Shown: positions 17,977 through 58,287, counted from the stretch's first letter. The stretch is 58,287 nucleotides of DNA from Rhodospirillaceae bacterium TMED23 (GCA_002168115.1 NHCC01000019.1:1-58287); one strand, 5' to 3'. Notes: generated from the sequence alone by a model not told the origin. A program made the numbers and translations.

Positions 17977-18024
17977 TTTTTCCTCCTTTATATCCCGCAA
18001 GTATTGACACAATTTCTTATTTAG

Positions 18025-18036: not shown

Positions 18037-18117
18037 GCAATAAATAATTGCTGTCAAATCAATTTTGGGTATCTAAATTGACCTCTAAACATAATTGAGT
18101 ATGAACGGATCTAAAAT

Positions 18118-20050: not shown

Positions 20051-20358
20051 GCCTCTATTATGTGCAAAAATTAATTTATGAATTAAATCGCAATCCAGAT
20101 ACTACTAAACGTTTTGAAGAAAATAGAGAGGCGTTACTAGCCAGTTATGATTTAACAGATGAAGAATTAACTGCCATACGTAAACCTGATATTGGGCTTC
20201 TCTATGTTTTGGGCGTAAATGGCCAAATTCTTATGCATTATGCAGCTCTTTGGAAAATACCATGGGATGACTACCTTAAATCGATGGAGGATGGCGTAAA
20301 AGAGCATGGCCCCGTCAGGACCGGATTGTACGCTCGAACGGAAGGGAAACTATCATGA
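20047..20358 (+). CDS. LigA-like small subunit of a class III extradiol dioxygenase
   Basis: 103 aa. YVQKLIYELNRNPDTTKRFEENREALLASYDLTDEELTAI fits the LigA/aromatic-ring-opening dioxygenase alpha-subunit pattern. Starts and stops overlap both neighbours by 4 nt. Confidence 0.7.
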   Translation: MSLYYVQKLIYELNRNPDTTKRFEENREALLASYDLTDEELTAIRKPDIGLLYVLGVNGQILMHYAALWKIPWDDYLKSMEDGVKEHGPVRTGLYARTEGKLS

Positions 20359-37744: not shown

Positions 37745-38728
37745 TTATGATATGGCAAATTTGCCGCGGTCATGGGGCTGGTTAAAATCAATATCTGGAC
37801 CTTTTGCAACTATTTCACTGGGGTTTATTTTAGGCATAAGCCCATAATATCCACGCTTTATATGCTCAAAATTTGTTAAACTGGATATACCAGGATACTG
37901 ATATAATTCTAAAGTAAAGTTCCATAAATTGGGGTAATCAAAAATATGCCTCTTATTACATTTAAAATGAGTATAATAAACAACGTCAAACCTAATAAGA
38001 GTTGAAAATAAACGCCAATCTGCCTCCGTTAATTTTTCTCCTGTCAAATATCTACGTTCACCCAACCTCTCTTCTAATTTATCTAGTGTCATGAACAAGT
38101 TATTGTATGCCTCTTCATAAGCATTTTGGGTCGTCGCGAAACCCGCACGATAAACACCGTTATTAATATTCTTGTAAACAATGGCGTTTATCTCATCAAT
38201 TTGATTTCTCAAAGACTCGGGATAAAAATCCAACTTATTATGCGTAATCTTATCAAATGCAGAGTTGAACATTCTAATAATTTCAGATGACTCATTATTT
38301 ACTATCGTTTCACTTTTTTTATCCCATAAAACCGGAACAGTTACCCTGCCGGTATATTTAGGGTCGGCCTTAGTATATAATTCATGTAAATAATAAATGT
38401 TATTTACAGCATCTGGTAGCGCGCCGGGTTCTTCATTAAATGTCCAACCCTGATCCTTAAAGCTAGCGCCACCTATAGATATGCTAATAATATCTTCTAG
38501 GCCTTTGACTCTGCGGAACATCGCAGTGCGATAAGCCCATGGGCAATTATGAGTTATATATAAATGATAACGCCCAGCTTCAGCAGCAAACCCAAGTTCA
38601 CCTGTTGGACCAGGCCCACCATCACTAGTTATCCAATTTCTAAAACTACTTTCTGGCCTTATAAATTTTCCTTCTTCATTCCGTATATTATCGTCATCAG
38701 ACCAGTGCCCGTCTACCAAAAGTCCCAT
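37745..38728 (-). CDS. yqjG: Xi-class glutathione transferase / glutathionyl-hydroquinone reductase (YqjG-like)
   Basis: GRYHLYITHNCPWAYRT (CPWA active site), RVTVPVLWDK, NNGVYRAGFATTQ and YLTGEKLTEADWRLF are colinear with E. coli YqjG from memory. Confidence 0.85.
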   Translation of the reverse strand: MGLLVDGHWSDDDNIRNEEGKFIRPESSFRNWITSDGGPGPTGELGFAAEAGRYHLYITHNCPWAYRTAMFRRVKGLEDIISISIGGASFKDQGWTFNEEPGALPDAVNNIYYLHELYTKADPKYTGRVTVPVLWDKKSETIVNNESSEIIRMFNSAFDKITHNKLDFYPESLRNQIDEINAIVYKNINNGVYRAGFATTQNAYEEAYNNLFMTLDKLEERLGERRYLTGEKLTEADWRLFSTLIRFDVVYYTHFKCNKRHIFDYPNLWNFTLELYQYPGISSLTNFEHIKRGYYGLMPKINPSEIVAKGPDIDFNQPHDRGKFAIS

Positions 38729-38757: not shown

Positions 38758-39135
38758 TTACAAGTGCTCATTAGCAAAAACTTCCTGAGCCCAGTGATAT
38801 GCAGAATTAGCCGCTGGGACGCCAGCATAAATAGCTGTCTGCAATATAACTTCCTTAATCTCATCTTTTGATAGACCATTATTCAAACCTGCCTTAATAT
38901 GTAATTTAAATTCATCTTCCCGGTTAAGAGCAATCATCATAGCCAAAGTAATGCAGCTTCTTGTCTTTCGTTCTAATCCGGGCCTCGTCCAAATTTCACC
39001 CCAAGCATAGCGCGTAATCAACTCCTGAAATTCCTCGGTAAAGCTATCTTTCTTAGCCTCCGCGGAATCAACATGTTTATTTCCGAGAACTTCTCGCCGA
39101 ACTTTCATACCGGCGTCAAATATATTCTTCATCAC
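38758..39135 (-). CDS. pcaC: 4-carboxymuconolactone decarboxylase
   Basis: CMD domain: ITRYAWGEIWTRPGL, SCITLAMMIALNR and LQTAIYAGVPAA. Confidence 0.85.
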   Translation of the reverse strand: MMKNIFDAGMKVRREVLGNKHVDSAEAKKDSFTEEFQELITRYAWGEIWTRPGLERKTRSCITLAMMIALNREDEFKLHIKAGLNNGLSKDEIKEVILQTAIYAGVPAANSAYHWAQEVFANEHL

Positions 39136-39144
39136 CTTATTCCT

Positions 39145-39927
39145 TTAATTCAAAAGAAAATCCAAAACATTTTTATTAAATTCTTTTGGTTTCTCGATAT
39201 TTGATAGATGAGCTACTCCATCGATTATGATCAATCTAGACTCCTCTATTTCTTTCTTAATTATCTCACTGTGTGATACGGGCGTCGATGGATCGAATTC
39301 GCCCGCAATAATTAATGTCGGTATCTTTATCTTTTCTAAATGAGCGCTTAAATTCAAATCACGAACTGCAGCACAGCAACCAACATAACCTGGCACGTCA
39401 CATGAATTCATCATTTCTTTTAAAAAATTAATCTTTGGCGAGCCAGTTTTTCTAAAATTATCTGATAGAAATCTTTGTAATCCAGCATCAATAATTGAGC
39501 TCATTCCGTGAGCTTTAACAGTATTAATTCTATCCTGCCAGGGCGCTGGGGGACTTAAATTAGAAGACGTATTACAAATAACTAATTTTTCTAGCCGTTG
39601 AGGTTGATTTATCCCCATCCACATACCGACCATCCCACCGAGCGAAATTCCGCACAAATTGGCTTTTTCAATTCCTAAAAAATTCATAAGGGATAATAAA
39701 TCCCGCCCGATATCATCAATACTATATTCACCTTCCGGCGAGGAAGATCCGCCGTGTCCTCTATTATCATATCTCAAAACTCGAAAAAATTTTGCGAATT
39801 CAGCAACTTGCTCATCCCATACATGCATATTTGTTGTGAGGGAATTGGATAATATTAATATAGGTAAACTTTTATCTCCCTCACATTCATATTTAATATG
39901 AGTGCCATTTAAATCTGCAACAGGCAT
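39145..39927 (-). CDS. pcaD: 3-oxoadipate enol-lactonase (alpha/beta hydrolase)
   Basis: ILILSNSLTT and the nucleophile elbow GISLGGMVG. It sits between pcaB and pcaC. Confidence 0.8.
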   Translation of the reverse strand: MPVADLNGTHIKYECEGDKSLPILILSNSLTTNMHVWDEQVAEFAKFFRVLRYDNRGHGGSSSPEGEYSIDDIGRDLLSLMNFLGIEKANLCGISLGGMVGMWMGINQPQRLEKLVICNTSSNLSPPAPWQDRINTVKAHGMSSIIDAGLQRFLSDNFRKTGSPKINFLKEMMNSCDVPGYVGCCAAVRDLNLSAHLEKIKIPTLIIAGEFDPSTPVSHSEIIKKEIEESRLIIIDGVAHLSNIEKPKEFNKNVLDFLLN

Positions 39928-39964
39928 TTATTTCCCCTAATTTTCATGCATCTTGCGCAGGTTC

Positions 39965-41251
39965 TTACTCAAGAAGCATCAGTTTGTCTAATGTTGACTG
40001 ATCGATTAATCGCATAAACCTTATATCTTCTTGAAGAACATCTTTCAAATGTTGGTTTTTAGATATCGAGGCACTGCAAGCTTCTGAAATAATCTGACTT
40101 GCCTGCTCTTTTCCTATTTTTTTAGATAGCTCAAGCATTAACTTTTCTGACATAAATAAACCATTTAAAGAGTCCAGATTATTTTTCATTTTTTCTTGAT
40201 CAATTTTTAAATTCTCGAATAATCCAGCAATAGCTGCCAAAGATCCAGCGGTTGTTTCAACAATATCTGGAATAGTAACCCATTCCACTTGCCATCCCCC
40301 CAGAGCCCTCTCATGTTCATGAGGCATGGCATCAACCAGAGTAGCTAATAAGTGCGGAACTCGTTTTGCGGCTGATAACGCAATCAAACAGCCAATAGAG
40401 TTTCGTTTATGCGGCATTGCCGACGATCTTCCACTGTCTAAATTTGTTTTTTCAAAAACTTCAGAAACTTCGAATTGCATTAACAAAGACAGATCTAAAG
40501 CAGTCTTACCAAGGGTACCAACAAGTATAGATAGGGATGAACATAAAGCAACAAATCGATCACGGTGCACATGCCAAACTTCATTGCTCATATCCAAATT
40601 GAGTAAGTTTGATAGAACTTTTCTAACTTTTTCTCCGTCAACACCCAAAGCAGACAAATTACCTGCTGCTCCCCCAAATTGTAATAACATAGCTTCGGAT
40701 GCACTCTTTTCAACTCGATCCCAACTCCTCGAAATTGCTGATCGCCAGCCTAGTAGTTTTTGTTCAAATTTAATGGGCACGGATGGTTGTAGAAGTGTTC
40801 GCCCAATCATGACTTGATCACCATATTTCTCTATTAATGTTGATAGTGCACTATCAATCCGCAGTATATCCTTTTTCAGTACTTTAATGGCTTTTTTCAG
40901 CTGCATGACCATTGCAGTGTCAATGACGTCTTGACTAGTAGCCCCAAAATGAATCCAGCCTGATGCTGACTTATCTGAACTCGCAACTAATTGAATAAGA
41001 CGCCTAACAAGAGGAACAACAATGGTTCCATGATCCACAGACTTATCTGATAAGTCCGCAATAGAAAATTTCTCTACTTTACAGTTGCTGCCAATTATTT
41101 CCGCAAAACCCTCATCAAATATTTTGCATTTAGCTTCTGAAAACGCTAACGCCTTTTCAAAGTCCAGCATGGCTTGAACCATTGCAGCATCACTAAATAT
41201 TTTCATAACATCAGGGGTGGTTGTTAGTCGCCTAAAAATCTGGCTTGTCAT
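39965..41251 (-). CDS. pcaB: 3-carboxy-cis,cis-muconate cycloisomerase
   Basis: The fumarate-lyase superfamily signature is SSAMPHKRNS; GATSQDVIDTA is also present. Start set at the ATG 41251 (MTSQIF); the track start at 41281 is a TTG. Confidence 0.85.
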   Translation of the reverse strand: MTSQIFRRLTTTPDVMKIFSDAAMVQAMLDFEKALAFSEAKCKIFDEGFAEIIGSNCKVEKFSIADLSDKSVDHGTIVVPLVRRLIQLVASSDKSASGWIHFGATSQDVIDTAMVMQLKKAIKVLKKDILRIDSALSTLIEKYGDQVMIGRTLLQPSVPIKFEQKLLGWRSAISRSWDRVEKSASEAMLLQFGGAAGNLSALGVDGEKVRKVLSNLLNLDMSNEVWHVHRDRFVALCSSLSILVGTLGKTALDLSLLMQFEVSEVFEKTNLDSGRSSAMPHKRNSIGCLIALSAAKRVPHLLATLVDAMPHEHERALGGWQVEWVTIPDIVETTAGSLAAIAGLFENLKIDQEKMKNNLDSLNGLFMSEKLMLELSKKIGKEQASQIISEACSASISKNQHLKDVLQEDIRFMRLIDQSTLDKLMLLE

Positions 41252-41292
41252 TGTCTTTTTGTTCCAAAGGGTGCATTGCAAATATTATTGGT

Positions 41293-41874
41293 TTAGACAT
41301 CAAAAAAAATAGTTTCGTTTTCACCTTGAAGATATATGTGGAATTCATATTCATCAATTAATCCACCATTAGGATTAAAATTGGCGATAAGAGTTTTTCT
41401 TTCTAACTCATCATCAATTTGGTTTAAAACAGGGTCCTCAGCATTTGATTGCACCTCATCTGAGAAGTATATTCGTGTCACCTGCTGTTTTAACATTCCC
41501 CGAGCCAGAATATTAACAGCTAAATGAGGAGCCTGAAGCGAATTTCCTCTCCCGTTTACCCTCCCAGGTTTTTGTGTGACAAAAAAGAATTGCCCTTCAT
41601 TATTAGTGCAAGAACGACCGAAACCAGAAAATCCTTTGATAAGTTCATTGTCAGAGTTATCCTCAGGATGATCATATTTTCCATTAATATTTGCTTGCCA
41701 AATTTCAATAACGGCATCTGGAACTGGCGTTCCTTCACCATCATAAACAATACCATGAATTTTTATTGCATTTTTACTATTTTTTGGAACAAGGTATTCT
41801 TGACCCTCCGATCTCATAGCTATTGATAGAAAAGGCCCCACTGTTTGGGAGGCCGTAACACCCATTTTACTCAT
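41293..41874 (-). CDS. pcaG: Protocatechuate 3,4-dioxygenase alpha subunit
   Basis: TASQTVGPF, IEIWQANINGKY and APHLAVNILARG. Confidence 0.88.
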   Translation of the reverse strand: MSKMGVTASQTVGPFLSIAMRSEGQEYLVPKNSKNAIKIHGIVYDGEGTPVPDAVIEIWQANINGKYDHPEDNSDNELIKGFSGFGRSCTNNEGQFFFVTQKPGRVNGRGNSLQAPHLAVNILARGMLKQQVTRIYFSDEVQSNAEDPVLNQIDDELERKTLIANFNPNGGLIDEYEFHIYLQGENETIFFDV

Positions 41875-41876
41875 AT

Positions 41877-42587
41877 TTAAGCCCCATTCTCAAAAGGTGT
41901 GGCTTGCCTGCCACGTAGAACGAAATCAAATTTAAAACTTAATGCAAAATCTGGTTCAGTTGTATCTAAATCAAACTCCGAGATCATCCTTTTACGTGCA
42001 GATTCCGAGGGAATTGAGTTAAAAATTGGATCAAAGGCGAATAGCGGGTCTTCTGGGAAATACATTTGGGTCACTAAACGTGTAACAAAAGCCGGACCAA
42101 AAAGAGAAAAATGTATGTGAGCAGGTCTCCAGGCATTAAAATGATTACCCCAAGGATATGCACCTGGCTTAATGGTCGTGAATTTATACTCACCCTTTTC
42201 GTTTGATATCATTCGGCCTCTGCCAACAAAATTTGGATCAAGGGGTGCAGGATGTTGGTCATTAGGATGGAGGTATCTGCCCGCTGCATTACATTGCCAT
42301 ATTTCAATTAAAGTATTAGGGACCGGTCTGCCACCCTCATCCAGCACACGCCCACTTACAAAAATTCTTTGGCCTTGTGCTTCTTTTCCATTTTCAATAG
42401 AGAGATCACCTTCACCAGGCTCTAATTTAACTGAACTAAATAATGGGCCTGTCACCTCTGTGACTGTATGATCAATTTTTATAGCTCGATTTTTTGGATG
42501 CCTAAAGGTAGTACTTTTATAGTCTCTGTAAAATGCGGGTGGATGATCTTTTTTACTCTCTCTTGAATAGCTCTCTGGCTCAGTCAT
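41877..42587 (-). CDS. pcaH: Protocatechuate 3,4-dioxygenase beta subunit
   Basis: IEIWQCNAAGRYLHPND and RPAHIHFSLFG carry the intradiol dioxygenase Fe ligands. Confidence 0.9.
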   Translation of the reverse strand: MTEPESYSRESKKDHPPAFYRDYKSTTFRHPKNRAIKIDHTVTEVTGPLFSSVKLEPGEGDLSIENGKEAQGQRIFVSGRVLDEGGRPVPNTLIEIWQCNAAGRYLHPNDQHPAPLDPNFVGRGRMISNEKGEYKFTTIKPGAYPWGNHFNAWRPAHIHFSLFGPAFVTRLVTQMYFPEDPLFAFDPIFNSIPSESARKRMISEFDLDTTEPDFALSFKFDFVLRGRQATPFENGA

Positions 42588-43541: not shown

Positions 43542-44882
43542 TTAGAATAATACCCTAGGCAGATAAGTTGCTATCTCCGGAAATGTAATAATCAGCACCA
43601 TTCCGATTAGCATAATAATCCAATACGGGGTTGCGCTTTTGAATATCGTCATAACGTTAACATCTGGGTCAATAGATGTAATTGCAGATTTTACCGTATA
43701 AACAAGCAATCCAAAAGGAGGTGTAAGCAAGCCAGCTTCTATTGCTATGATTCCTATAATGGCAAAAGCAATGGGATCATATCCAAGTTTCACAGCGATT
43801 GGAGCAAAAATAGCGGCAGTTAGCAACATAATAGAAATTGAGTCTATAATCATACCCAACAAAAACCAAATGAATACCATTACACCTATTATAGCCCAAC
43901 TCGGCATGCCCGACTCTAAGAAAAGGCTCTCTATCGCATTAGCCAAACCCGTCATTGCTAGGGTATTCGAATATAAAGCAGCTGTGACAAGAAGAAGTAA
44001 AATTGGACCAGACGTTCTTCCAACGGATAATATTGAGTCTATAATCTCTTTATATCTCATCCCTTTAATAACGCCAAGAACAAGTCCAAGTAGAGCCCCA
44101 ACACCAGCTCCTTCGGTCGGACTAAACAACCCAAACCAAATACCACCTAACACTGCAACGACAACAATGACAATACCCGCCAAACTTGTATAAAACTGCT
44201 TTCTTGGAACAATTTCCTCTGCCTCTACATTTGACTCAGAGCCACTACCAACTGCTTCAGGTTTAAATAGGGCCATTCCTAGAACATAAGTACAAAACAA
44301 AGTTGTCAGAAGTAAACCGGGAAGCACGCCAGCTAAAAATATTTTACCAATTGAATTTTCGGTAAGAATACCCCAAACAATCATCAGAACACTTGGTGGT
44401 ATCAACATACCTAGACAACTCGAACCCGCAACCGTACCCAACGCAAATCCCTTATGGTATCCGTGCCGTTTCATCTCTGGATAGGCAATACGAGAAAAAG
44501 CGGCCGCAGACGCTATGCTTACACCAGTAACAAATGAAAAAAGTGCGTTCCCAAATACAGTTGCAATTGCCAATCTACCGGGCAATTTGGACAGCATGGA
44601 ATTGATTCCACGATAAACATCGGTTATAGCGCCCGATTTACCAATAAATTCTCCCATCAACATGAATAATGGTATCACAGCAAAAACATAGTCTCTAATT
44701 CCTTCATATGCTTTTGCAGCAAGCATCACTTTCACCGTATTAAATGCATTCCAGTCTTGGCCCGTCACCAGCCAGATTCCCAGGGCACTAGTCATACCAA
44801 GAGCAATAGCAATATGAACACCGATAACGACTAAACCAACTAAGCTTACGATAAGTATGATTGCAGTACTTACATCAAACAC
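43542..44882 (-). CDS. dctM: TRAP transporter large permease (DctM family)
   Basis: 446 aa and polytopic. It lies directly downstream of the DctQ- and DctP-type genes. Confidence 0.9.
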   Translation of the reverse strand: MFDVSTAIILIVSLVGLVVIGVHIAIALGMTSALGIWLVTGQDWNAFNTVKVMLAAKAYEGIRDYVFAVIPLFMLMGEFIGKSGAITDVYRGINSMLSKLPGRLAIATVFGNALFSFVTGVSIASAAAFSRIAYPEMKRHGYHKGFALGTVAGSSCLGMLIPPSVLMIVWGILTENSIGKIFLAGVLPGLLLTTLFCTYVLGMALFKPEAVGSGSESNVEAEEIVPRKQFYTSLAGIVIVVVAVLGGIWFGLFSPTEGAGVGALLGLVLGVIKGMRYKEIIDSILSVGRTSGPILLLLVTAALYSNTLAMTGLANAIESLFLESGMPSWAIIGVMVFIWFLLGMIIDSISIMLLTAAIFAPIAVKLGYDPIAFAIIGIIAIEAGLLTPPFGLLVYTVKSAITSIDPDVNVMTIFKSATPYWIIMLIGMVLIITFPEIATYLPRVLF

Positions 44883-44911
44883 GTGTTTATCCTCACTATT
44901 TTGTTTCTTGA

Positions 44912-45430
44912 TTAATGTTCAGAACCTGTATTTGCATCGAGCTCTGCATCAACATAATCCGGCATAAAAACATCAATGTATGCAAGGACCAAATAATTCA
45001 ATAAAGCTATCGCACTTCCCCCCATTACTGCCCACCTTGCTGGCCAAGCTGGGACACGAAGAGCACCCTCACCCTCAAATTCATTCTCCACCCAAGATAA
45101 GACACTCTCATCCCATCCACCAAAAATGATCATGAGAAAAAAAATGGCACCAAGAATATAACCAAATGCCAAGAAAAACTTTTGTAAGCCATCCGGGAAC
45201 CGTGAGACTAAAAAATCAGCCCTAAGCATCGAACGGCTGCGGATTGCATATCCCGCTTGCAAAAATACGATTATTACAATCGACGCAGTGACAATCTCAG
45301 CCATTCCATCAAAAATCCCCCTAAAACTTATATTTAACATAATAAAAAAAGTTAAACAAAAGGCCCAGGCTGCGGCCAATACCATTAAAAGTTTAGAGAG
45401 CTTATCGCTAAATGTAACTATCAAGTTCAT
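44912..45430 (-). CDS. dctQ: TRAP transporter small permease (DctQ family)
   Basis: 172 aa with four hydrophobic segments. It lies between dctP and dctM. Confidence 0.8.
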   Translation of the reverse strand: MNLIVTFSDKLSKLLMVLAAAWAFCLTFFIMLNISFRGIFDGMAEIVTASIVIIVFLQAGYAIRSRSMLRADFLVSRFPDGLQKFFLAFGYILGAIFFLMIIFGGWDESVLSWVENEFEGEGALRVPAWPARWAVMGGSAIALLNYLVLAYIDVFMPDYVDAELDANTGSEH

Positions 45431-45524
45431 GCCTGTCTGTGCTCCAACAGCATATTCAAAGCCAAAAAAATTATACTATCAAAATTCTTTTACTTAAATT
45501 TTATCAAAGATTATCCCAAATAGA

Positions 45525-45561
45525 TTACCGGCTGGAAGCTATAAAAGCAACCAGCCGGTAA
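45525..45561 (-). other. Intercistronic 11-bp perfect stem-loop between dctP and dctQ
   Basis: ttaccggctgg (45525-45535) pairs with ccagccggtaa (45551-45561) around a 15-nt loop. No clean T-run follows on the minus strand, so it is more likely an mRNA stabiliser or attenuator than a full terminator. Confidence 0.55.
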
Positions 45562-45589
45562 GATATTTACTAAGTATTCTAAACAATAA

Positions 45590-46675
45590 TTATTTTACAA
45601 CGTATCGAACCGGCCATTTATAGCCTTGTTTCTCCGCCGCATCTAAAGTTGCATTTAGAATTGCTTTAGCTGGGTAGCCCTCTTTTTCCAACTGATTGGC
45701 ATATTTTTGTGGCCAATGAGCAAGTTTTTTAGCCCAATCTAAGCGAACACTAGCTGGTAAATCAGATACTGTAATGTTTTTACGAAGCCAATCAATATCC
45801 TTTTTGTAGCCAACTTTGTTAAATTCACCAACTTTCAATTCAAAACGTGCAGCTACCTCTTTAAATATTGGCTTAACTTCAGATGGAAGGCTATTCCAAA
45901 AGCGATTATTAACATTTAATGCATGCCAAGTAATGGAGCCAAAACCAATTGTTGTATAGTATTTCCCAACTTCATGAAGTTTAAATACTGGACCCCAAGC
46001 ACTAGGGAACATAATTCCACCTTCAGCGACGCCATTTTGTATTTTCTTATACCAACCAGGCAAACCGTCAGTTACAGCTATAATACCAACGCCCGCTTCC
46101 TTCATCCAATTTAAGTTGAGGCCAGCACCAAGAATTTTACGGCCCTTAAGATCTGAAACTTTTTTCCAAGGAAAATTAGTTCCGATGTTGTAGCCACCGT
46201 CACCAATGCGAGCCAACATTGTCTGATTAAATTTTTGGAAACGCTTCTCTAAGCTTGGAAATTGCTTGTATATAGATGCAGCAATCGCAACTGATTTTAC
46301 TGGATCCATGGTTCCAAAAGGTAACATAATTTGAAATGCATGCATTTTTAATTTTGAAGCCTCAAAACAAAAGCAAAATCCACCTACGTCAACGATTCCG
46401 TTTTGAATGCCTTCAAACGTATCAAAAACTTTAACTATAGATCCACTATAACCTTCAATAAACTTGATTTTATGGCTGGTTTTAGCTTCTACAGCTTTTT
46501 TTAATTCAGTCTGAAAATAGCTTTTCATTAGCCCTGCATAAACAACGGTAGGCGGATGCCCAGACGCAATTCGAACAGTAATATTCTTAGCATCTGCGGG
46601 TACCGCAACGGCTAGTGATCCCGCAACAAACCCTGCAGCAGCTAAACTCAATAGAGATTTTTTAAATAATTTCAT
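45590..46675 (-). CDS. dctP: TRAP transporter substrate-binding protein (DctP family)
   Basis: Start set at the ATG 46675 (MKLFKKSLLSLAAAGFVAGSLAVAVPADA, a signal peptide), preceded by GGGAGGT. The track ORF begins 18 codons upstream. Confidence 0.85.
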   Translation of the reverse strand: MKLFKKSLLSLAAAGFVAGSLAVAVPADAKNITVRIASGHPPTVVYAGLMKSYFQTELKKAVEAKTSHKIKFIEGYSGSIVKVFDTFEGIQNGIVDVGGFCFCFEASKLKMHAFQIMLPFGTMDPVKSVAIAASIYKQFPSLEKRFQKFNQTMLARIGDGGYNIGTNFPWKKVSDLKGRKILGAGLNLNWMKEAGVGIIAVTDGLPGWYKKIQNGVAEGGIMFPSAWGPVFKLHEVGKYYTTIGFGSITWHALNVNNRFWNSLPSEVKPIFKEVAARFELKVGEFNKVGYKKDIDWLRKNITVSDLPASVRLDWAKKLAHWPQKYANQLEKEGYPAKAILNATLDAAEKQGYKWPVRYVVK

Positions 46676-47005
46676 TAAATACCTCCCATAGGTATAGAAA
46701 AAAATAAAAAGTGGAAAACCACTTCCCACTAAAACACTATTTTGTTACCACATTTTTTTACTCTTATAAAAGACTTAATTTTATTTTTAAGGAAATTAGA
46801 AAAATCCAATATTAAACTTTTTTGATTGGATTATGAAATCTTTGATCGAAGAACCTTTTCAGTAGCTTTAAAATAAGTTATCCCATTATTGATTTAGAAG
46901 TTGATTGTCAAATATAGTGAATTAAGTTGGGACCTTTTATTCAACCGAAAACCCTATTGTTTATGAAAGAGGCCAATCGCTGAGTAATTCTAATTGGAGG
47001 GGATT

Positions 47006-47509
47006 ATGAATAAATTCGAGAGCATTTCTCAGGACCAGTTTAAAAACGGGATGAGAAAGTTGGCAGCAGCAGTAAACGTTATTACTGTCGAACATGAAGG
47101 GTTTAGAGATGGTTTAACAGCTACAGCCGTATGTTCGGTATCAGCTGAACCCCCTCAATTATTAATTTGTGTTAATTCTCAAACCCACGGGCATAAACTG
47201 ATACGTCAAAGCAAGTGTTTTGCGCTTAACATAATGGCACGTGACCAAGAAGAAATTGCTATGCGCTTTGCGGGAATGGATGGAACGGAGAGATCCCAGC
47301 GATTTGATAAAGGCTCATGGTCTAAAATAATCACGGGCGCGCCTTGCCTTAATGGCGCATTAGTTAATTTTGATTGCGAAGTAATTAATGAGATTGAGGC
47401 TGGGACCCATTCAATATTTATTGGCCACATTGTCGGAAGCAGAATATCTGGCGACGATAACGCACCCCTAATTTATGGAGAAGGAAAATTCACAGGACTG
47501 ATGAATTAG
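47006..47509 (+). CDS. Flavin reductase domain protein (HpaC/NtaB-like NAD(P)H:flavin oxidoreductase)
   Basis: MRKLAAAVNVITV, GLTATAVCSVSAEPPQLLICVN and FDKGSW. Start is at the ATG 47006, 5 nt after GGAGG. Confidence 0.85.
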   Translation: MNKFESISQDQFKNGMRKLAAAVNVITVEHEGFRDGLTATAVCSVSAEPPQLLICVNSQTHGHKLIRQSKCFALNIMARDQEEIAMRFAGMDGTERSQRFDKGSWSKIITGAPCLNGALVNFDCEVINEIEAGTHSIFIGHIVGSRISGDDNAPLIYGEGKFTGLMN

Positions 47510-48201: not shown

Positions 48202-49245
48202 ATGTTTGCAGATCGCATCGAAGCTAAATGGATTGATACTTTTGAGAAGGCTTTTGAACTTTGCAAAGTCCAAAAAGGAGAAGAGATTGCCATTCTCTCT
48301 GAAACACAGTCACGCGCTTTAAATGTTAACCTTGCTGAACTGGCCCTCTTAAGAATGGGCGCGCGGCCTTTTCATGTGGTTGTACCCACCCCACCTCAGG
48401 AAGCTCCGGTCCCCGTTAGATCAACTGGAGCCTCAAATTCAGTTCAACAATTAGGGCCAGCGGTAAAAGCATTAGCTGCCAGCGGTATGGTAGTTGATCT
48501 AACGGTCGATGGAATGCTACATGCCCCAGAATTACCAGATATAATAAAAGATGGAGCCCGATTTTTAATGATTTCGGATGAACATCCGGAAGCATTAGAG
48601 CGACTTTTGCCAGACCCTGAATTAACACCGAGGATCAAAGAGGCTGTAAAATTTACAAGATCTTCAAAACTAATGCATGTCACTTCAAGCGCAGGAACAG
48701 ATCTTCAAATAAAAATGGAGAAATCGCCGACCGTTGGAGTATGGGGTTACTGTGATAGACCCGGTACGGTTGCTCATTGGCCTGGTGGCATCATAGTGTC
48801 GTTTCCCCTCAAAGCTGCTGTAAACGGGAAATTAGTTATGGACACGGGCGATATTAACCTCACATTTAAGCGTTACCTCGAAAGTCCAATTGCGATGACG
48901 ATTAAGAATGACTTTATAACTGATATATCGGGTTGTGGCACTGACGCAAATATGTTTCGCCGCTACATGGAGGCTTGGGGAGACAAAAACGCTTACGGGA
49001 CTTCGCATGTAGGTTGGGGAATGAATGAAAGAGCACGTTACGAAGCACTTACATTTTACGATAAAAACGATACCAACGGGACAGAAATACGGGCTTATGC
49101 AGGTAATTTTTTATATTCAACAGGAGCCAATGAATTCGCAAAACGTTTTACCCTTGGTCATTTTGACCTACCTATTGGCAACTGTTCAATAAAAATCGAC
49201 GATACACTAGTAGTTGAAGAGGGCACCTTAACAGATGCGTTCTAA
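48202..49245 (+). CDS. NicX-like 2,5-dihydroxypyridine 5,6-dioxygenase family protein (aminopeptidase-T/M29 fold)
   Basis: HWPGGIIVSFP, LVMDTGDINLTFKRY, FITDISG, YGTSHVGWGMN, RAYAGNFLYSTGAN and LGHFDLPIGNCSIKIDD are colinear with P. putida NicX (HWPSGFLFTWP, LVLDVGDIILPFKNY, FITGIHG, YGISHIGWGLQ, RAFYGNFLFSTGPN, CHLDIPLRNCDIYLDD) from memory. Confidence 0.8.
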   Translation: MFADRIEAKWIDTFEKAFELCKVQKGEEIAILSETQSRALNVNLAELALLRMGARPFHVVVPTPPQEAPVPVRSTGASNSVQQLGPAVKALAASGMVVDLTVDGMLHAPELPDIIKDGARFLMISDEHPEALERLLPDPELTPRIKEAVKFTRSSKLMHVTSSAGTDLQIKMEKSPTVGVWGYCDRPGTVAHWPGGIIVSFPLKAAVNGKLVMDTGDINLTFKRYLESPIAMTIKNDFITDISGCGTDANMFRRYMEAWGDKNAYGTSHVGWGMNERARYEALTFYDKNDTNGTEIRAYAGNFLYSTGANEFAKRFTLGHFDLPIGNCSIKIDDTLVVEEGTLTDAF

Positions 49246-50068: not shown

Positions 50069-51292
50069 ATGTTTGAACCCAGCTCTTGGGGTTTGACAAA
50101 ACAACAAACCGAACTAACCACCTTGGCAAGAAAAATCGGGCAGGAGAAATTTGCTAAACGAGCAGAAAAATGGGACCGTGAAGCAATATTTCCAATGGTT
50201 AATTATAAAGATATGCACAAAGTTGGATTATTGGGCATTTGCATCCCAAAGAGATATAAAGGTTTAGGCGCTGATCAAAAAACCTATGCCCTTACAGCTG
50301 CTGAGATAGGACGTTATTGCGGTGCAACGGCTTTAACATACAATATGCATGTAAGTTCCTGCCTCTGGACTGGAACGCTAGTAGATGATTTACCCATGAG
50401 CGCTAAAGATAGGAAAGAACATAATCGAAGAAGAGCTGTTCATTATGAACGCATTTTAAAAAAAGGGGCTATTTACGCACAACCATTCTCGGAAGGCGGT
50501 GCAGCGGCAGCTGGTTTTAGACCATTTGGGACGATGGCAACGCGGAGTGATGGTGGCTGGATTATAAATGGGAAAAAGATATTTGCATCTTTATCTGGCT
50601 CAGCAAATTATTACGGAATCTTGTGTACAGAAGATAAAGAGAACTTAAGTAGAAGAGATACAATGTACCTCGCTGTGCCAGCTAAATCTAAAGGAGTTAG
50701 CATTGAAGGAGATTGGAATCCACTAGGAATGCGGGGAACTGTATCCAGAAATCTAATTTTTAAAGATGTTTTTGTTCCTGATGATGCAGCGTTGATGCCA
50801 AAAGGTATTTATTTTGAGGCCGCTATCAGATGGCCGCATATGTTTACCACGCTTACTCCAAGTTATATGGGAATAGCTCAGGCAGCCTACGATTTTACCA
50901 TCAAATATCTGCGAGGTGAGATAAAAGGCACCGCACCTGTGAAACGGAGAATGTATCCTACTAAACAACACGCTGTCGCGGAAATGCGTATAATGTTGGA
51001 ACAAACGAAGGCTATTTGGTTTCAAATGTTAAATGATGCCAAACCCAATCCAAATAAAGATGAAATTCTGCGTGCCTATTGTGCACAATACTCTGTAATG
51101 GAGAATTCTAACAAATTAGCTCAGCTTGCGATACGAACGTGTGGAGGCCAATCAATGCTCAAGTCGCTGCCTCTCGAGAGATTATATCGAGATAGCCGTT
51201 GCGGCAGCTTGATGTTGCCTTGGACCTCGGAGCTCTGCTTGGATAAACTGGGGAGAGAAAGCTTGTATGAAAGAGGTGAAGACGACAGCTAA
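50069..51292 (+). CDS. Acyl-CoA-dehydrogenase-fold flavoprotein lacking the canonical C-terminal catalytic Glu (possible group-D flavin monooxygenase)
   Basis: The ACAD N/M/C architecture is present. The C-terminal block reads ERLYRDSRCGSLMLPWTSE where MCAD-type enzymes have R..R.....YEGT.EI. It resembles the DszC-type SLHDPVSYK region. Confidence 0.8.
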   Translation: MFEPSSWGLTKQQTELTTLARKIGQEKFAKRAEKWDREAIFPMVNYKDMHKVGLLGICIPKRYKGLGADQKTYALTAAEIGRYCGATALTYNMHVSSCLWTGTLVDDLPMSAKDRKEHNRRRAVHYERILKKGAIYAQPFSEGGAAAAGFRPFGTMATRSDGGWIINGKKIFASLSGSANYYGILCTEDKENLSRRDTMYLAVPAKSKGVSIEGDWNPLGMRGTVSRNLIFKDVFVPDDAALMPKGIYFEAAIRWPHMFTTLTPSYMGIAQAAYDFTIKYLRGEIKGTAPVKRRMYPTKQHAVAEMRIMLEQTKAIWFQMLNDAKPNPNKDEILRAYCAQYSVMENSNKLAQLAIRTCGGQSMLKSLPLERLYRDSRCGSLMLPWTSELCLDKLGRESLYERGEDDS

Positions 51293-52940: not shown

Positions 52941-53759
52941 ATGAACGACAGGCCTTTAAATACAGTAGATGGTGAACTCCTTTATTGCGTAGATGACGGT
53001 ATCATGCCTGTAAATGAAACTTCAAACTCAATTACAAAAATACCTCAATATTCGGGAAATTTTGATCGCCACCTTGTCCGCATCAATAACGGACGCATGT
53101 GGAATAAACCTTTTAATATAGACGTTCATGGTTTTGAATTAATTACACATAAAACTAATGTAACAGATTTTATGAATACCAACACTCTAATCTCAGAGTA
53201 TTATTTGGAAATAGAGGGCGTTGTTAAGAAACATATCGGTGCGAAGAATATTCATATTTTTGACCATACTATTCGAACGGGAGACGATGAGAAGCGTAAA
53301 AAATTATTACTCCGAGAGCCAGTAAAACGTGTACATAATGATTATACAGATTGGTCCGGGCCACAACGTGTTCGCGATCTTTTACCTAAAGAAGCAGACA
53401 ACCTCTTATCTAAACGCTTTTCGATTATCCAAATATGGCGACCGTTACAAAGTATATTAGAAAAAGATCCTCTCGCAATATGTGATGCGCGTTCAATAAA
53501 AAATAATGACTTAATAATCGCTGAGAGAAGATATCCAGACCGAGTTGGTCAGACCTATCAAATTAAATTTAATAAAAATCATGAATGGTTCTACTTTCCA
53601 AAAATGACACGCGACGAGGCAATTATATTTAAAGTTTACGACTCCGAGACAGACGGACGCTCTAGATTCACACCCCATACTTCATTTGTTGACCCGAACT
53701 CGGACTTTAATAGCCCCGAACGCGAGAGTATTGAAGTTCGTATGCTTGCTTTTTATTAA
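52941..53759 (+). CDS. CmcJ/NvfI/AsaB-family non-heme oxygenase-like protein
   Basis: VKRVHNDYTDWSG, IIQIWRPL...DPLAICDARS and EWFYFPKMTRDEAIIFKVYDS match the H.D / N.WRP / W.y...M...E...FK.yDS blocks of this family as I remember them. Confidence 0.65.
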   Translation: MNDRPLNTVDGELLYCVDDGIMPVNETSNSITKIPQYSGNFDRHLVRINNGRMWNKPFNIDVHGFELITHKTNVTDFMNTNTLISEYYLEIEGVVKKHIGAKNIHIFDHTIRTGDDEKRKKLLLREPVKRVHNDYTDWSGPQRVRDLLPKEADNLLSKRFSIIQIWRPLQSILEKDPLAICDARSIKNNDLIIAERRYPDRVGQTYQIKFNKNHEWFYFPKMTRDEAIIFKVYDSETDGRSRFTPHTSFVDPNSDFNSPERESIEVRMLAFY

Positions 53760-53781: not shown

Positions 53782-55008
53782 TTAAGCAATAGTGACTGGC
53801 AATACGTCCAGACCTCTGAAGCGGGCTCGCCCATGAAAGCGCTTTTCGCCATTAGCTTTTAATTTAGGAAACCGTTTGATAAACTTTCCAATTGCGACAT
53901 CACCCTCAATTCGACCAAGTGTATTGCCCAAACAGATATGTTTACCAATCCCAAATGCTATCTGAGGGTTTGGTTTCCGACCAATATCCACTTCCTCTGG
54001 ATTATCAAAGATTTCAGGATCACGATTAGCAGACCCAATTCCCGTATGAATAAAAGCACCGGCTGGAATCACAACTTTTTTATTAGAGATGCCAAATTCA
54101 ACATTCTCAGTTGCCTTTCGATTGCCGATCTGAAGTGGCGACTGAAATCTCAGAAACTCCTCAACTGCTGTTTTTATTAAACTTGGATCATTTCTAAGCC
54201 TATTCATTTCATTCGGATAATCGAGTAATATACTAATACCATTACCCACTAAATTTGCAGTTGTTTCATGTCCAGCATTTAATAAAAAAATACAGTTCTG
54301 AACGAGTTCCACAGATGATAGCCTTTCTCCCTCAATTTTACCAAAAATAAGTGAAGCCAGCACCTCGCCCATTTCCCCTGCCTCAGGTTTTTCTCGACGT
54401 TTAGCTATCAGTTCCTCAAGTAATGATCCAAATTCCTCCACGGCAGAATGACCTTCCTTTATTTTCTCTGGCGGCACCACGGGATCTAACGCCCCCAAGA
54501 TTAAATTTGAATAATTATGAAGCTTATGGCGATGCTCTTCTGGTACCCCGAGCATGTCGGCAATAATTTCTGTAGGCAGTGCCAAAGCATAATCCGATAC
54601 AACATCAAATGAGCCCAAATCAGCTAACCTATCCAATAAACGATCAATAATCTGCTCAATTACTGGTTCTAATTCGGCGAGTTTTCGCGGAGTAAAAGCC
54701 TCAGAAAGTAATTTTCTGACACGTGTATGAGCAGGAGGATCGTTAAATACCAAGCTCGAGGTATGATGTGTATAAAGGGGCCCATCACCAAACTTGGGTC
54801 TAAAATTCTCTTTCTTATCAGAACTCATGCTTGGATGCTTGAACGATAAAACAACATCTTCATAACGCGTTAAAAAATAAGAGCCATCTTCATTCAGATG
54901 CACGGGATCATAATTTCGAAGACTTTTATAAGTGGGAAAAGGATCATCAAGAAAATCTTGCCCTATTCTTTTGATATCAAAATTCTCGGCCAGTTCTTTA
55001 TCATTCAT
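53782..55008 (-). CDS. Cytochrome P450
   Basis: The heme-thiolate loop is FGIGKHICLGNTLGR, the I-helix is LLNAGHETTANL and the ExxR motif is VEEFLRF. Confidence 0.92.
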   Translation of the reverse strand: MNDKELAENFDIKRIGQDFLDDPFPTYKSLRNYDPVHLNEDGSYFLTRYEDVVLSFKHPSMSSDKKENFRPKFGDGPLYTHHTSSLVFNDPPAHTRVRKLLSEAFTPRKLAELEPVIEQIIDRLLDRLADLGSFDVVSDYALALPTEIIADMLGVPEEHRHKLHNYSNLILGALDPVVPPEKIKEGHSAVEEFGSLLEELIAKRREKPEAGEMGEVLASLIFGKIEGERLSSVELVQNCIFLLNAGHETTANLVGNGISILLDYPNEMNRLRNDPSLIKTAVEEFLRFQSPLQIGNRKATENVEFGISNKKVVIPAGAFIHTGIGSANRDPEIFDNPEEVDIGRKPNPQIAFGIGKHICLGNTLGRIEGDVAIGKFIKRFPKLKANGEKRFHGRARFRGLDVLPVTIA

Positions 55009-55025: not shown

Positions 55026-57992
55026 CTATGCTGAAGCAGACAACTCAGTGTCGCCACTCCAAACCTCAACCTCAACCAAAGCAGAGGACGTCGCCATCGA
55101 GTGGGCTTGCTTAATTTGCGTGCGTTTTGGAGTTAGTTGATTTAAACACCCTCCTCGATCTACGGAGTTGCCAGGCTCCCCCATCGGGTCATAAATAGCA
55201 CAAGACTCATATCCGTGAATAACTCCGCGGGCTAGTCGACTTGTAGGAAATGCGGCACAAACGACTGCGCCTCTATCATTGTAGACTTTGACCAAATCAA
55301 ATTTTTTAATGCCTCTAGCTATGGAGTCCTTATCATTGATACGAAGTGTCCAGTAATATCTCCCATCAACCTTAATACGCTGGTCAATGATATCATTTAG
55401 AAAAGTATCCTTGCCGTCACCTTGACTATGATAACTATATCTTGAATGTGGCGTCATCATCAAAAGAGGAAACTTATCAAAGAGTTTTTTATTATTTGGG
55501 CCCTCCCAGCTTGCTGCATACCTAGCAATGGTTGGCCTCTCCGGATCATCCGGATCAAAACGTTTGAGACTATTACAGTCAAATTCAATTTTTCCAGATT
55601 GAGTCTGCAATCCTTTTAAAAATTCTTCAGTATAATCAGCTGGTAAGGGATGGGGCTCCGGAACATCTTTCTTTCTGCCCTCTGCGAACCAGCGAAAAGA
55701 AACAGGAGGGCGCAGTTCTTCTTTTAATGGAGGAACCACAAAATAACCTTTTTTGATGAATTGTTTCCAAGTGATATGTTGGGGAAGATCTGACGCGTCA
55801 AACTGTCGCTTTACCCAATCAAGTTCACTCATACCTTCAGAAAACAACAAACCTAGACCGAGCCTTTGTGATATCTCGAGAAAAATCTGATAGTCAGACT
55901 TTGACTCGCCAAGAGGTTCAATACATTTATGCTGGAATGTAATTACACGGTGATTGAGTTGATTTTGACCATGATGGGTATAACCACCTATGCCGGCCCA
56001 CTCACTTATATCCGTCCGTTCTAAATGAGTACATGCAGGAAGAATGATATCAGCGTAGGGTGCATCACCTTCCATCCAGATAGACTGATTAACTACAAAT
56101 TCAAGGTTTTCCGAATTATACATTTTAACATAGCGATTTGTTTCGCTCATGGTACCAAATAATGATGATCCATACTTATAAAGCATTTTTACAGGGGCCT
56201 GGCCCGTTTTAGGATAGGCAATTTTATTGAATTGGCCTTCTATTGTTTTGCCATCCCATGCATAACCTTCTACACGCTCACCTGCAATTGCCTCGGGCAA
56301 ATGTAAGCGAGGAATCTTTTGGCTCGTTGTATTTATGGTGGGAAGTTGAGGCATCCGCTGATAAAGCGAGACCGCTAATGCAGTACCTGTTAAATCACCA
56401 GAGATTCCTCCATCCGCGTAACCTGGAAAATAAAAATGAAGGTCAAGCGGTGTCGCTCTCTGCATATTACCTAGATTCACTCCAGGCTTACCTATTCCTT
56501 GCATCGCCATTAAGCAAATCATCATTCTGGACCACTGTATCCCGGTTGCATTTCTGCATGCACCCCCATACCCATTCCCCGCTCCACCCGCCGAGAGATA
56601 GACTTTTTTATTTCCCCAAGCGCGCGCTAATGCCCTTATTTCTTTGGAACCAACACCTGTCTCCTTTTCCTGCCATTCAGGTGTTTTAGGAATTCCATCA
56701 TCTTCTCCTAGGACATAAGATTTCCAAACGTCAAAACCCTCAGTGCGCTTCGATACATATTCTTGATCATATAATTCTTCAGTAATCCAAACATAAGCAA
56801 TAGCTAATGCCAGGGCAGGATCGCTTTGAGGCTTTGGAGATAACCATTTCCCGCCAAGAAATTGAGCGGTATCATTGTAATAAGGGTCTATGTGCACATA
56901 ATCGATATCTAATTCTTTTAACCATTTCCTTCTTATCGAGCCCTCATGCGACCCATAATTGCCACTTGTTGCCTCTGGATTACTTGACCAAAAAACAATC
57001 ATCTCACAATGTTTTAACAAATCTTCGACAGTACCGTAATTCTCAGACATACCGACTCTTAAACTGTGTCCCCAATGATGCAGACCACCCCAATACCAAC
57101 CCTCCCAACTATCGGGGTTATGATGAATTTCTGTATGCCCTACTAAATTCATAAATCTAAAATTTGCGCTCAGGTAATAGCCAATATTTCCAAACGTATG
57201 ATGGGAGCCGTGACTAGAAGCCATGGCTCCTGGTCCATATTGACGCTTCACTCGTTTTATTTCGCCAGCAACTATGTCTAGTGCCTCATCCCAGCTTATT
57301 TTTTCATAACCACTTTTTCCACGGTTTTTTATATTCCGATCACCCTTAGGATCAAAATCCACTCTTTTCATGGGATGCAAAATGCGGTCAGGAGAGTAAA
57401 CCATAGACTTCCAGTTTTGGCCATGAGGCGATAATGAGGTTTGCCGGGGAGGCGTGAACTCTTTTCCTCTAGCTTTCACATTCCATGTTTTAGGGTCACT
57501 TTCATCAAATTCTATGGGCGTAATTCTAATAATTTTATCGTTCTTGACATATACCCTTATTGGCCCACCATTCGTGTTACTGGTGTAGACTATTGTTCCA
57601 TCTGTTTGGTGGGTACCAAATTTCCAGTTAATCGTTTGCGTTAACATAATTGTTTGCGCAAACCAGAAAGCATCCTCATCCCTACCAGTCATAGTAAGAT
57701 TAAATTCTTTTTGTGCATCAATTTGTTGTTGATAGTTAACGGGCGGCATCAAAAGTCTAACAGCAATATTTTCATCCTTGAAAGCCATACAAATATCTGG
57801 ATTGTCATGTATGCCCGCCTTCGACTTTATTTTACCGCTAGAAAAAATAAAAAATCGCCCTCGACTGTCATCAGCTATTTTTATCTGTGCAATTAAATTT
57901 CTTTGTTTGCAACGTTTACGGAACGATGGGTAAAAAAATGAAGTGATTGTTAATACGCAATACAGTCCAAAAAGAATTATAGAAAATTTCAT
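55026..57992 (-). CDS. Molybdopterin (bis-MGD, DMSO-reductase family) enzyme, pyrogallol hydroxytransferase large-subunit-like, with N-terminal membrane anchor plus extra domain
   Basis: [93 protein letters not shown] and [11 protein letters not shown] are colinear with Pelobacter AthL from memory. Start preferred at the ATG 57992 ([13 protein letters not shown] 11 nt upstream). The track's GTG at 58034 would overlap fahA by 37 nt. Confidence 0.85.
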
Positions 57993-57997
57993 TCTTC

Positions 57998-58287
57998 TTA
58001 AATCTCCAGAGCCGATAGTATGATTGACCGACACTCGCCAAAACCAATCTTTATTAAATCATCACCTCCACCACACCACGCCTTCATTATCACCTCATCC
58101 CCATCTTTAAGAAATTTACGCTTCTCGCCTGAAGGAAAAACGATGTCAGTTTTGCCACCTTCTGTCACTTCAAGCAGACTGCCCAGCTGATTCTTCTCAC
58201 TACCAGAGATAGTTCCTGAGCCATAAAAGTCTCCTGATCTCAAATTACAACCATTTATGGTGTGATGCGTAAGCATTTGAGAAATCG
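57998..58287 (-). CDS. fahA: Fumarylacetoacetase, C-terminal part (5' end outside window)
   Basis: [24 protein letters not shown]...GSLLE...[13 protein letters not shown]...IGFGEC is colinear with the C-terminus of human/bacterial FAH (LTVNGCNLRPGDLLASGTISG...GSMLE...TRKFLLDGDEVII...IGFGQC). The frame is open to the window edge. Confidence 0.88.

Follow-up and report, generated by a model that had tools for sequence, protein, structure and literature searches.

What would a molybdoenzyme related to the transhydroxylase of a strict anaerobe be doing between a fumarylacetoacetase gene (fahA) and a cytochrome P450 gene, with no gene for an iron-sulfur beta subunit at its side? This question is raised by one end of a 58,287-nucleotide stretch of DNA from Rhodospirillaceae bacterium TMED23 (GCA_002168115.1, NHCC01000019.1:1-58287), referred to here as the window. 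From its Pfam domains, its match to the solved structure 4v4c_A and its AlphaFold2 model, we identified the gene (55026..57992, minus strand) as that of an alpha (catalytic) subunit of the AthL/DbhL type, that is, of a predicted phenol hydroxylase/transhydroxylase carrying molybdenum bis(pyranopterin guanine dinucleotide) (Mo-bisPGD), with an SCP2 domain built into its N-terminus. Phenol hydroxylases of the AthL/RhL/DbhL type are known. What is new here is a marine subclade that has no linked beta gene, is coupled to a P450 gene and stands within a homogentisate operon.

Domain structure of the molybdoenzyme

A six-frame listing gives a minus-strand reading frame of 1002 amino acids with a GTG start (55026..58034), the form in which an earlier note on this DNA had described the gene. 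This frame is present, but the ATG at 57992 is the likelier start, giving a protein of 988 amino acids, because the closest homologues (84-95% identical) also have 988 amino acids and begin with MKFS and because a GGAG lies 11 nt 5' of this ATG; the in-frame GTG at 58034 would overlap fahA. Residues are therefore numbered here in the 988-residue form, and adding 14 gives the 1002-residue numbering. Upstream, 5 nt (GAAGA) separate the TAA of fahA (57998-58000) from the alpha ATG; downstream, 17 nt lie between the alpha TAG (55026-55028) and the P450 ATG at 55008, so that the neighbours and both gaps are exactly as described earlier. The window holds the 3' end of fahA (57998..58287, minus strand), which is cut by the window end; in relatives hmgA and a divergent MarR gene lie further upstream. 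A twin-arginine signal was considered for the RRMKFS that follows the GTG and was rejected, being out of register with the consensus and lying upstream of the likely ATG, where the frame overlaps fahA.

The catalytic part matched three Pfam families: the AhtL-like first domain (PF21423; 57402..57566, minus strand; E 6.4e-25), the molybdopterin oxidoreductase domain (PF00384; 55866..57386, minus strand; E 9.3e-29) and the Molydop_binding domain (PF01568; 55113..55466, minus strand; E 5.4e-10). With phmmer, residues 150-996 in the 1002-residue numbering aligned with residues 7-871 of AthL (4v4c_A) at E 3.7e-295 and about 50% identity over 865 residues, and the next-best solved relatives were the DMSO and TMAO reductases at about 1e-69. 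AthL is the large subunit, of the DMSO-reductase superfamily, of the pyrogallol-phloroglucinol transhydroxylase AthL/BthL of Pelobacter acidigallici (PDB 4v4c; EC 1.97.1.2), which acts on pyrogallol with tetrahydroxybenzene as cosubstrate; the enzyme is a soluble heterodimer whose small subunit, with three [4Fe-4S] clusters, is encoded beside the large one. The AlphaFold2 model, built with 121 sequences (mean predicted local distance difference test score, pLDDT, 84; predicted template modelling score, pTM, 0.85), was matched by Foldseek to 4v4c_A with template modelling (TM) scores of 0.82/0.93, a root-mean-square deviation of 2.2 A and 50% identity. These two comparisons bear out the colinearity with AthL from about residue 150 that the earlier note had proposed. 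The first domain is the counterpart of the domain that binds the FS0 cluster, and because residues 123-215 contain no cysteine, alpha has no FS0 cluster; AthL has a cysteine-free first domain as well.

The AthL sequence was rebuilt from the phmmer alignment and then aligned with 121 family sequences. Counterparts of AthL His144, Asp174, Ser175, Trp176 and Tyr404 are invariant in all 121, and that of Tyr560 is Tyr in 120; His144, Asp174, Ser175, Tyr404 and Tyr560 align with H264, D294, S295, Y525 and Y671 of the window protein, all five within its molybdopterin oxidoreductase domain. In AthL, Ser175 is reportedly the Mo ligand and the other four are catalytic residues (Messerschmidt et al. 2004). 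On that basis the Mo ligand of alpha is probably S295, in the motif NPDSWEGW (codon 57108-57110), and the segment to which the earlier note had assigned this serine is probably wrong, since it holds the counterpart of His144. Coordination of Mo by Ser has been reported for PgtL and RhL (PMC10100899).

Ahead of the AthL-like part, residues 1-122 (57627..57992, minus strand) form a domain that AthL lacks. In the AlphaFold2 model, helices at residues 2-20 and 22-29 are followed by strands at 33-39, 45-51, 54-59 and 67-71, helices at 74-81 and 87-95, a strand at 99-103 and a helix at 105-120. The order is alpha-alpha-beta4-alpha-alpha-beta-alpha, and for most of the domain the pLDDT is about 90 or higher, whether it is modelled alone or within the full-length protein. 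The best Foldseek matches in the PDB were to UbiJ-SCP2 (6h6o/6h6p/6h6n; E 1.4e-5, probability 1.00, 112-119 aligned columns), with TM scores of 0.55/0.65 for 6h6o and up to 0.56/0.69, and the top 38 matches, 29 of them with E ≤ 1e-3, were UbiJ-SCP2, the C-terminal domains of SCP2-like alkylsulfatases and sterol carrier/SCP2 proteins. The SCP2/UbiT-type extension suggested by the earlier note thus stands at the level of the fold, but not at the level of sequence, where the N-terminal 150 residues gave no significant Pfam or NCBIfam match. Pfam SCP2 (PF02036) gave weak matches to 8 of 41 family N-termini (best E 0.0056) and none above the gathering threshold for the window protein, and hhalign of the domain against human SCP2 was not significant (probability 1.8%). 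The domain therefore has the fold of the UbiJ, UbiT and SCP2 carriers without significant sequence similarity to them, and unlike them it is fused to a molybdoenzyme.

This extension is not peculiar to the window protein, as had been supposed, but distinguishes a family whose thousands of members are about 1000 residues long (5152 matches at E ≤ 1e-10 among 8000 candidates scored), very widespread and present in aerobic Alphaproteobacteria and other phyla. All of the 120 best database homologues are 972-1027 amino acids long and cover 95-100% of the query, and all of 80 genome loci match alpha from about residue 1, none starting later than residue 21. Mean column identity in the extension is 62-65%. 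This conservation, together with a ratio of nonsynonymous to synonymous substitution (dN/dS) of 0.077 for the domain, ruled out the idea that the extension is a mis-called upstream region. A profile of the domain run against 1.84 billion representatives found 683 proteins at E ≤ 1e-3. In the best 150 of these the match lies within the first ~275 residues of the protein, and the nine inspected were N-termini, or contig-end or frameshift fragments, of the same Mo alpha family. No stand-alone relative and no other fusion of the domain was seen among these best 150 matches, nine of them inspected, and it looks like a specialised branch of SCP2 that exists only as a molybdoenzyme fusion. It would act as a built-in ligand-binding or membrane-association module.

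The earlier note had read the start of the protein as a membrane anchor, a hydrophobic helix followed by a basic cluster. In the model this helix is SCP2 helix alpha-1 (residues 2-20) and the basic RKRCKQR is helix alpha-2 (22-29), and because the Foldseek alignments span 112-119 of the 120 domain residues, they must take in this hydrophobic helix, which is thus part of the SCP2 fold. In the window protein it does have 22 uncharged residues, and its hydropathy on the Kyte-Doolittle scale averages 1.94 over 19 residues. Among the 121 family members, however, the median uncharged run is 12, and a mean of at least 1.6 is reached in 17. Because a run of at least 19 occurs in just two of them, the window protein being one, a dedicated transmembrane anchor is not a family feature; even in the 95%-identical orthologue a Lys interrupts helix 1 midway. 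The hydrophobic first 12 residues (FSLILFGLxxLL) could give peripheral membrane contact, and the activities of RhLS and DbhLS are reportedly membrane-associated.

DbhLS of Thauera and RhLS (RehLS) of Azoarcus/Aromatoleum anaerobium, both from denitrifiers, depend on Mo and use water to hydroxylate resorcinol-type phenols. The reactions of the family convert resorcinol to hydroxyhydroquinone, 3,5-dihydroxybenzoate to 2,3,5-trihydroxybenzoate, and pyrogallol to phloroglucinol. A homologue search seeded with a betaproteobacterial member gave a Thauera chlorobenzoica protein of 1002 amino acids (WP_075147811) which UniRef names, by annotation, 3,5-dihydroxybenzoate hydroxylase large subunit (DbhL). 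It is 61% identical to the window alpha over residues 1-984, the SCP2 region included, and shares with it the three Pfam domains and the catalytic His/Asp/Ser/Tyr set. Because of this full-length relative the extended family cannot be called undescribed, and the view that no example had been described does not hold at family level. The two loci differ: in Thauera a 288-residue Fer4_11 gene lies directly downstream, with LysR and TRAP genes flanking, whereas the window alpha has no small-subunit gene. The settings differ too, DbhLS and RhLS belonging to an anaerobic hydroxyhydroquinone pathway and the window alpha to an aerobic context (hmgA, fahA, P450) in a marine low-GC host. The genetic definition of DbhLS comes from T. 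aromatica AR-1 (Molina-Fuentes et al. 2015, as cited in PMC7028382), and the resorcinol hydroxylase encoded by rehLS/rhLS is its sister enzyme (PMC10084136). Among the papers searched, none mentioned an SCP2 domain in AthL, RhL or DbhL enzymes or tied these enzymes to P450s or homogentisate, and the presence of the domain throughout the family appears previously unremarked.

The beta subunit, the P450 and the homogentisate operon

The absence of a beta gene has to be set against the rule in the family. One genome per species was scanned, giving at least 587 relatives, of which the best 80 loci were taken for context; the tblastn query was a family beta subunit of 279 amino acids (Fer4_11 plus CarboxypepD_reg) that itself matches BthL (4v4c_B) at E 1.2e-74. 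Among 79 loci at ≤69% identity, beta lies within ~1 kb downstream of alpha in 72 and upstream in 2 (Actinomycetota); three end too early to judge, and two (L076 and L087) have no beta in the available flank. Of 76 informative loci, 74 thus have a BthL-like beta no more than ~2.5 kb from alpha, and a beta is present in P0120, P0011, P0020 and the Thauera locus as well. Taken as a whole, the SCP2-extended family is clearly of the alpha-beta kind. The two loci with no beta in their flanks are outside the window's clade. L076 (4313-7351) has the ancestral pocket described below, and L087 (569-3622) is followed by three open reading frames (ORFs) sized like those of a TRAP transporter; the same metagenome-assembled genome as L087 (JAZDGZ01) has a second alpha, L065, with beta.

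Against this background no BthL-like sequence was found by tblastn in the 58-kb window, and no BthL-like gene in the loci of the closest relatives L001, L009, L089, L090, L092, L093, L094 and L095 (up to 10 kb of flank per side). The alpha genes concerned are 95% (L001/L002), 84% (L089), 79% (L090), 78% (L009, L092, L093 and L095) and 72% (L094) identical to that of the window, and make up nine distinct beta-less alpha genes, window included. The missing adjacent Fe-S subunit gene is therefore confirmed for the window and for all close orthologues with readable context. As a statement about orthologues it applies to the window's subclade, not to the wider family.

Directly downstream of alpha, in the slot where relatives carry beta, is the gene for a class I CYP107-like P450 of 408 amino acids (53782..55008, minus strand), with the Cys-ligand motif FGIGKHICLG and with Vdh, BioI, CYP125-type enzymes and PksS as nearest solved relatives. 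An orthologue of this P450 occurs near all nine beta-less alpha genes (93, 82, ~73 in five loci, and 54% identity) and is absent from the 79 remaining genome loci within flanks of up to 10 kb. The distance from the end of alpha to its start is 9-17 nt in the window, L001, L002, L089 and L093 and ~150 nt in L009; the L095 contig ends inside the P450 gene, and in L094 the P450 gene is divergent and upstream of alpha. Between alpha and the P450 gene, L090 (13079-14404) and L092 (9020-10342) have an antisense gene for a UbiD-family (VdcC-like) hydroxyarylic acid decarboxylase, a hint that the pathway deals with a phenolic carboxylic acid. Beside the divergent P450 gene of L094 is an ORF of 487 codons (1114-2577, minus strand), rich in Pro and Ala and ending in about 50 Ser-Gln repeats, which matches no Pfam family.

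The gene order MarR (divergent)-hmgA-fahA-alpha is common to eight of the nine beta-less loci, and the two homogentisate genes pass their NCBIfam equivalog cut-offs (hmgA, 665.9 versus 510.75 bits; fahA, 522.4 versus 375.3 bits). No ferredoxin or reductase gene was seen in the hmgA-fahA-alpha-P450 operons. Convergent with the P450 gene of the window is a gene for a CmcJ/NvfI-family oxidoreductase (52941..53759, plus strand; 278.7 bits versus a cut-off of 80) that recurs in L001, L002 and L089. Besides beta, the neighbours of alpha across the 80 genome loci include TctC, SDR, 2-hydroxyacid dehydrogenase, CoA ligase, enoyl-CoA hydratase, amidohydrolase_2, LysR and FAA-hydrolase family genes, and this variability indicates catabolic use in no single pathway.

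The beta-less clade also differs in its substrate pocket. Fifteen positions separate it from the remaining family, several of them clustered around the region of AthL Trp354, which with Arg153 we presume to be a pocket residue. In the window protein this remodelled region (56454..56582, minus strand) comprises A471 (56580-56582), Y475 (56568-56570) and R512-A513 (56454-56459), by which GGWGNGHGG has become GGAGNGYGG (W471A, H475Y) and NLQWGTP has become NMQRATP (W512R, G513A); A303G and Q315M are further clade changes. The family-typical pocket motifs GGWGNGHGGACR and LQWGTP are thus not kept, MQRATP replacing the latter, and where the window has A471/Y475/R512/A513 the DbhL-named protein has W/H/W/G. 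Both AthL pocket residues are Tyr in the window alpha: the Arg153 counterpart is Tyr in 120 of the 121 family sequences (Y273), whereas at the Trp354 position 106 of 110 distant members have His and the window's clade has Tyr (Y475). Judging from the sequence, the new Arg would suit a carboxylated substrate.

In a neighbour-joining tree rooted on AthL, the window protein and P0001-P0009 are monophyletic, and their immediate relatives are P0010, which is beta-less, and P0020, which is beta-positive. P0020 (locus L096, 778-4661) has the A471/Y475/R512/A513 pocket together with an overlapping beta gene and an adjoining transposase gene, and looks like a transitional form in the evolution of the beta-less clade from the alpha-beta family. 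Because P0020 is remodelled yet has beta, while P0011, P0012 and the DbhL-named protein keep the ancestral residues, the pocket changed before beta was lost and the P450 gained.

The alpha gene of the window is a functional gene under strong purifying selection. Against the 95%-identical orthologue dN/dS is 0.038 at dS 0.59, with 0.033 in the catalytic part and the value given above for the SCP2 domain. The reading frames of 11 clade members are intact and their catalytic residues invariant, and the 90%-identity clusters of the clade have up to 198 member sequences each.

The surrounding aromatic-catabolism island

The last 43 kb of the window form an aromatic-catabolism island that ends with the P450, alpha and fahA genes, and the chemistry of the island genes is O2-dependent and directed at soluble aromatic acids. 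A meta-cleavage cluster of the hpa (homoprotocatechuate) type (15720-21928) comprises genes for MarR, a fumarylacetoacetate (FAA)-hydrolase family protein (HpaG-like), a DHDPS-like aldolase, CHMI, an aldehyde dehydrogenase, a LigB-type extradiol dioxygenase and an SDR protein. The protocatechuate branch of the beta-ketoadipate pathway (38758-42587) is represented by PcaGH-like, Lyase_1 (PcaB-like), alpha/beta hydrolase (PcaD-like) and CMD-family (PcaC-like) genes, with a GST-family gene alongside (37745-38728). With hmgA/fahA, these two clusters give the window three aromatic ring-cleavage routes.

Between the pca cluster and the P450 gene are a TRAP transporter (43542-46729) and an HpaC/RutF-like flavin reductase gene (46994-47509), with a MarR gene also in this part of the island. 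The segment 48202-53759 then holds genes for a NicX-like protein, an alpha/beta hydrolase, a protein of acyl-CoA-dehydrogenase fold, a CoA ligase and the CmcJ/NvfI-family protein. The NicX-like protein (48202-49245) had no Pfam match directly, and its orthologue is listed under PF26233 NicX (2,5-dihydroxypyridine dioxygenase-like). The protein of acyl-CoA-dehydrogenase fold (50069-51292) matches HsaA, DszC and p-hydroxyphenylacetate hydroxylase C2 weakly, and with the flavin reductase it may form a two-component aromatic monooxygenase and not be a true acyl-CoA dehydrogenase.

Some features of the window lie apart from these clusters. Its first 8 kb have a GC content of 0.43-0.47, compared with 0.34-0.41 afterwards, and an IS3-type transposase gene (rve, HTH_21) is found at 6114-6923; this part may have been inserted, or may mark a junction with DNA of another origin. 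A gene for an EgtD-like histidine-specific SAM methyltransferase (Methyltransf_33, E 6.8e-99) at 22903-23883 adjoins an EamA transporter gene, and two N-formylglutamate amidohydrolase-family genes (24535-25317 and 32420-33316) are found near it.

Possible roles of the enzyme and its P450

The likeliest reading, to which we give an even chance, is that alpha works with the P450 as a peripheral module feeding homogentisate cleavage. The two enzymes would convert a phenolic, probably carboxylated aryl substrate such as hydroxyphenylacetate to homogentisate or a close analogue, which HmgA and FahA would then cleave. The P450 would carry out an O2-dependent hydroxylation, and alpha would add or relocate a hydroxyl group para to an existing one, possibly in a redox-neutral transhydroxylase mode that makes no use of an Fe-S chain; a para hydroxyl would give the 2,5-dihydroxy ring from 3-hydroxy- or 3,5-dihydroxy-phenylacetate. 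Redox-neutral hydroxyl transfer, as in AthL, is the one mechanism of the family that would have no need of the beta clusters. The addition of a hydroxyl group para to an existing one in the family, giving a hydroquinone, would suit a homogentisate-type product. In evolutionary order, the pocket was remodelled first, the linked beta was lost afterwards, and the CYP107-like P450 became a constant neighbour. P450 genes have a precedent in homogentisate clusters, as CYP116B enzymes of Cupriavidus and Rhodococcus form homogentisate from 2-hydroxyphenylacetate beside hmg genes (PMC8449657, PMC11889516). Those 5-hydroxylases are self-sufficient and reductase-fused, whereas the P450 of the window is a stand-alone protein coupled to a molybdoenzyme gene. 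Searching the literature on the transhydroxylase or AthL together with SCP2, homogentisate, P450 or marine, we found no description of this arrangement.

An alpha with no beta beside it could work in the redox-neutral mode, use an unlinked beta, or hand its electrons to the P450. An ordinary alpha-beta hydroxylase like DbhLS or RhLS, with beta encoded elsewhere, water as oxygen donor, three [4Fe-4S] clusters and the P450 as a mere neighbour, is possible but doubtful. All the catalytic residues of alpha are kept, P0020 has the same pocket together with a beta, and the presence of an alpha-beta pair (L065) and a lone alpha (L087) in one metagenome-assembled genome makes sharing of a beta conceivable. 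However, a gene that lies near alpha in 74 of 76 informative loci is missing from all nine beta-less ones, the 58-kb window included, and the P450 fills the slot directly downstream of alpha in five loci, the contig of a sixth ending inside it. The P450 might instead have replaced beta as redox partner, the Mo centre oxidising a phenol with water and passing two electrons, the exact number that a P450 requires for O2 activation, to the P450 haem. Such a loop would make two ring hydroxylations, for example from phenylacetate and O2 to homogentisate, with O2 as its sole co-substrate and no NAD(P)H, ferredoxin or reductase. This would fit the strict association of the P450 with the beta-less alpha genes (nine of nine, versus none of 79 other loci), its start 9-17 nt after alpha in the window and four relatives, the absence of any ferredoxin or reductase gene seen in the operons, and the parallel divergence of the two proteins (78% identity for alpha, 73% for the P450). 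Yet the P450 is an unremarkable class I enzyme, its gene is divergent in L094 and separated from alpha by the antisense UbiD-family gene in L090 and L092, and direct electron transfer from Mo-bisPGD to a P450 haem is, to our knowledge, without precedent; we regard this as a long shot.

The reading proposed in the earlier note makes the enzyme a transhydroxylase tethered to the membrane, with a hydrophobic polyphenol or quinol as its substrate. On such a view the substrate could be a phlorotannin-type compound, an alkylresorcinol or a prenylquinol, and the SCP2 domain would hold its lipid tail. This reading seems to us improbable. It can draw on the closeness of the SCP2 fold to UbiJ, a carrier of polyprenyl-quinone intermediates, on the long uncharged helix 1 of the window protein, on the lipid-like substrates of the nearest solved relatives of the P450, on the CoA ligase and acyl-CoA-dehydrogenase-fold genes nearby, and on the membrane association reported for RhLS and DbhLS. 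But such a helix is found in two of 121 members, is interrupted by Lys in the 95%-identical orthologue and is part of the SCP2 fold itself. Carboxylate transporters (TctC, TRAP) and the catabolism of soluble acids dominate the family neighbourhoods, and the DbhL-named relative acts on a small soluble acid and yet has the same domain. The proposed algal phloroglucinol or quinol substrate likewise finds no support in a context that is a homogentisate operon within a protocatechuate and homoprotocatechuate-type ring-cleavage island. That alpha is a decaying remnant, non-functional since its partner subunit gene was lost, is extremely improbable: a pseudogene is essentially refuted by the dN/dS of 0.038, and the intact frames and invariant catalytic residues of the 11 clade members and the size of the sequence clusters speak against it as well.

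Several points weigh against the proposal that alpha and the P450 supply homogentisate or an analogue. The substrate and product of the subclade are drawn purely from gene context, and one of the beta-less loci, L094, has neither hmgA nor fahA within its 10-kb contig. The nearest solved relatives of the P450 take lipid-like substrates (vitamin D3, acyl-ACP, steroids), not small aryl acids. Because the known hydroxylases of the family need an electron acceptor chain and alpha has no Fe-S cluster of its own, a hydroxylase mode with no beta lacks an evident outlet for electrons. The beta search covered 58 kb in the window and up to 10 kb on each side in the relatives, so that a beta could lie elsewhere in the genome, and no genes for molybdenum cofactor biosynthesis were found in the 58-kb window.

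AthL, RhL and DbhL are the textbook enzymes for hydroxylating phenols without oxygen in strict or facultative anaerobes, and their SCP2-extended form is very widespread in aerobic Alphaproteobacteria and other phyla. The SCP2 domain may explain the reported membrane association of RhLS and DbhLS. In an abundant marine lineage the Fe-S subunit gene has been dropped from the locus, the pocket rebuilt and the molybdoenzyme coupled to a P450 in a homogentisate operon. If the pair does feed homogentisate cleavage, this would be a new peripheral route for the turnover of aromatic carbon in the ocean, and it would also offer a natural test case for the catalytic competence of alpha alone, with a bearing on the still unexplained function of the transhydroxylase's Fe-S clusters.

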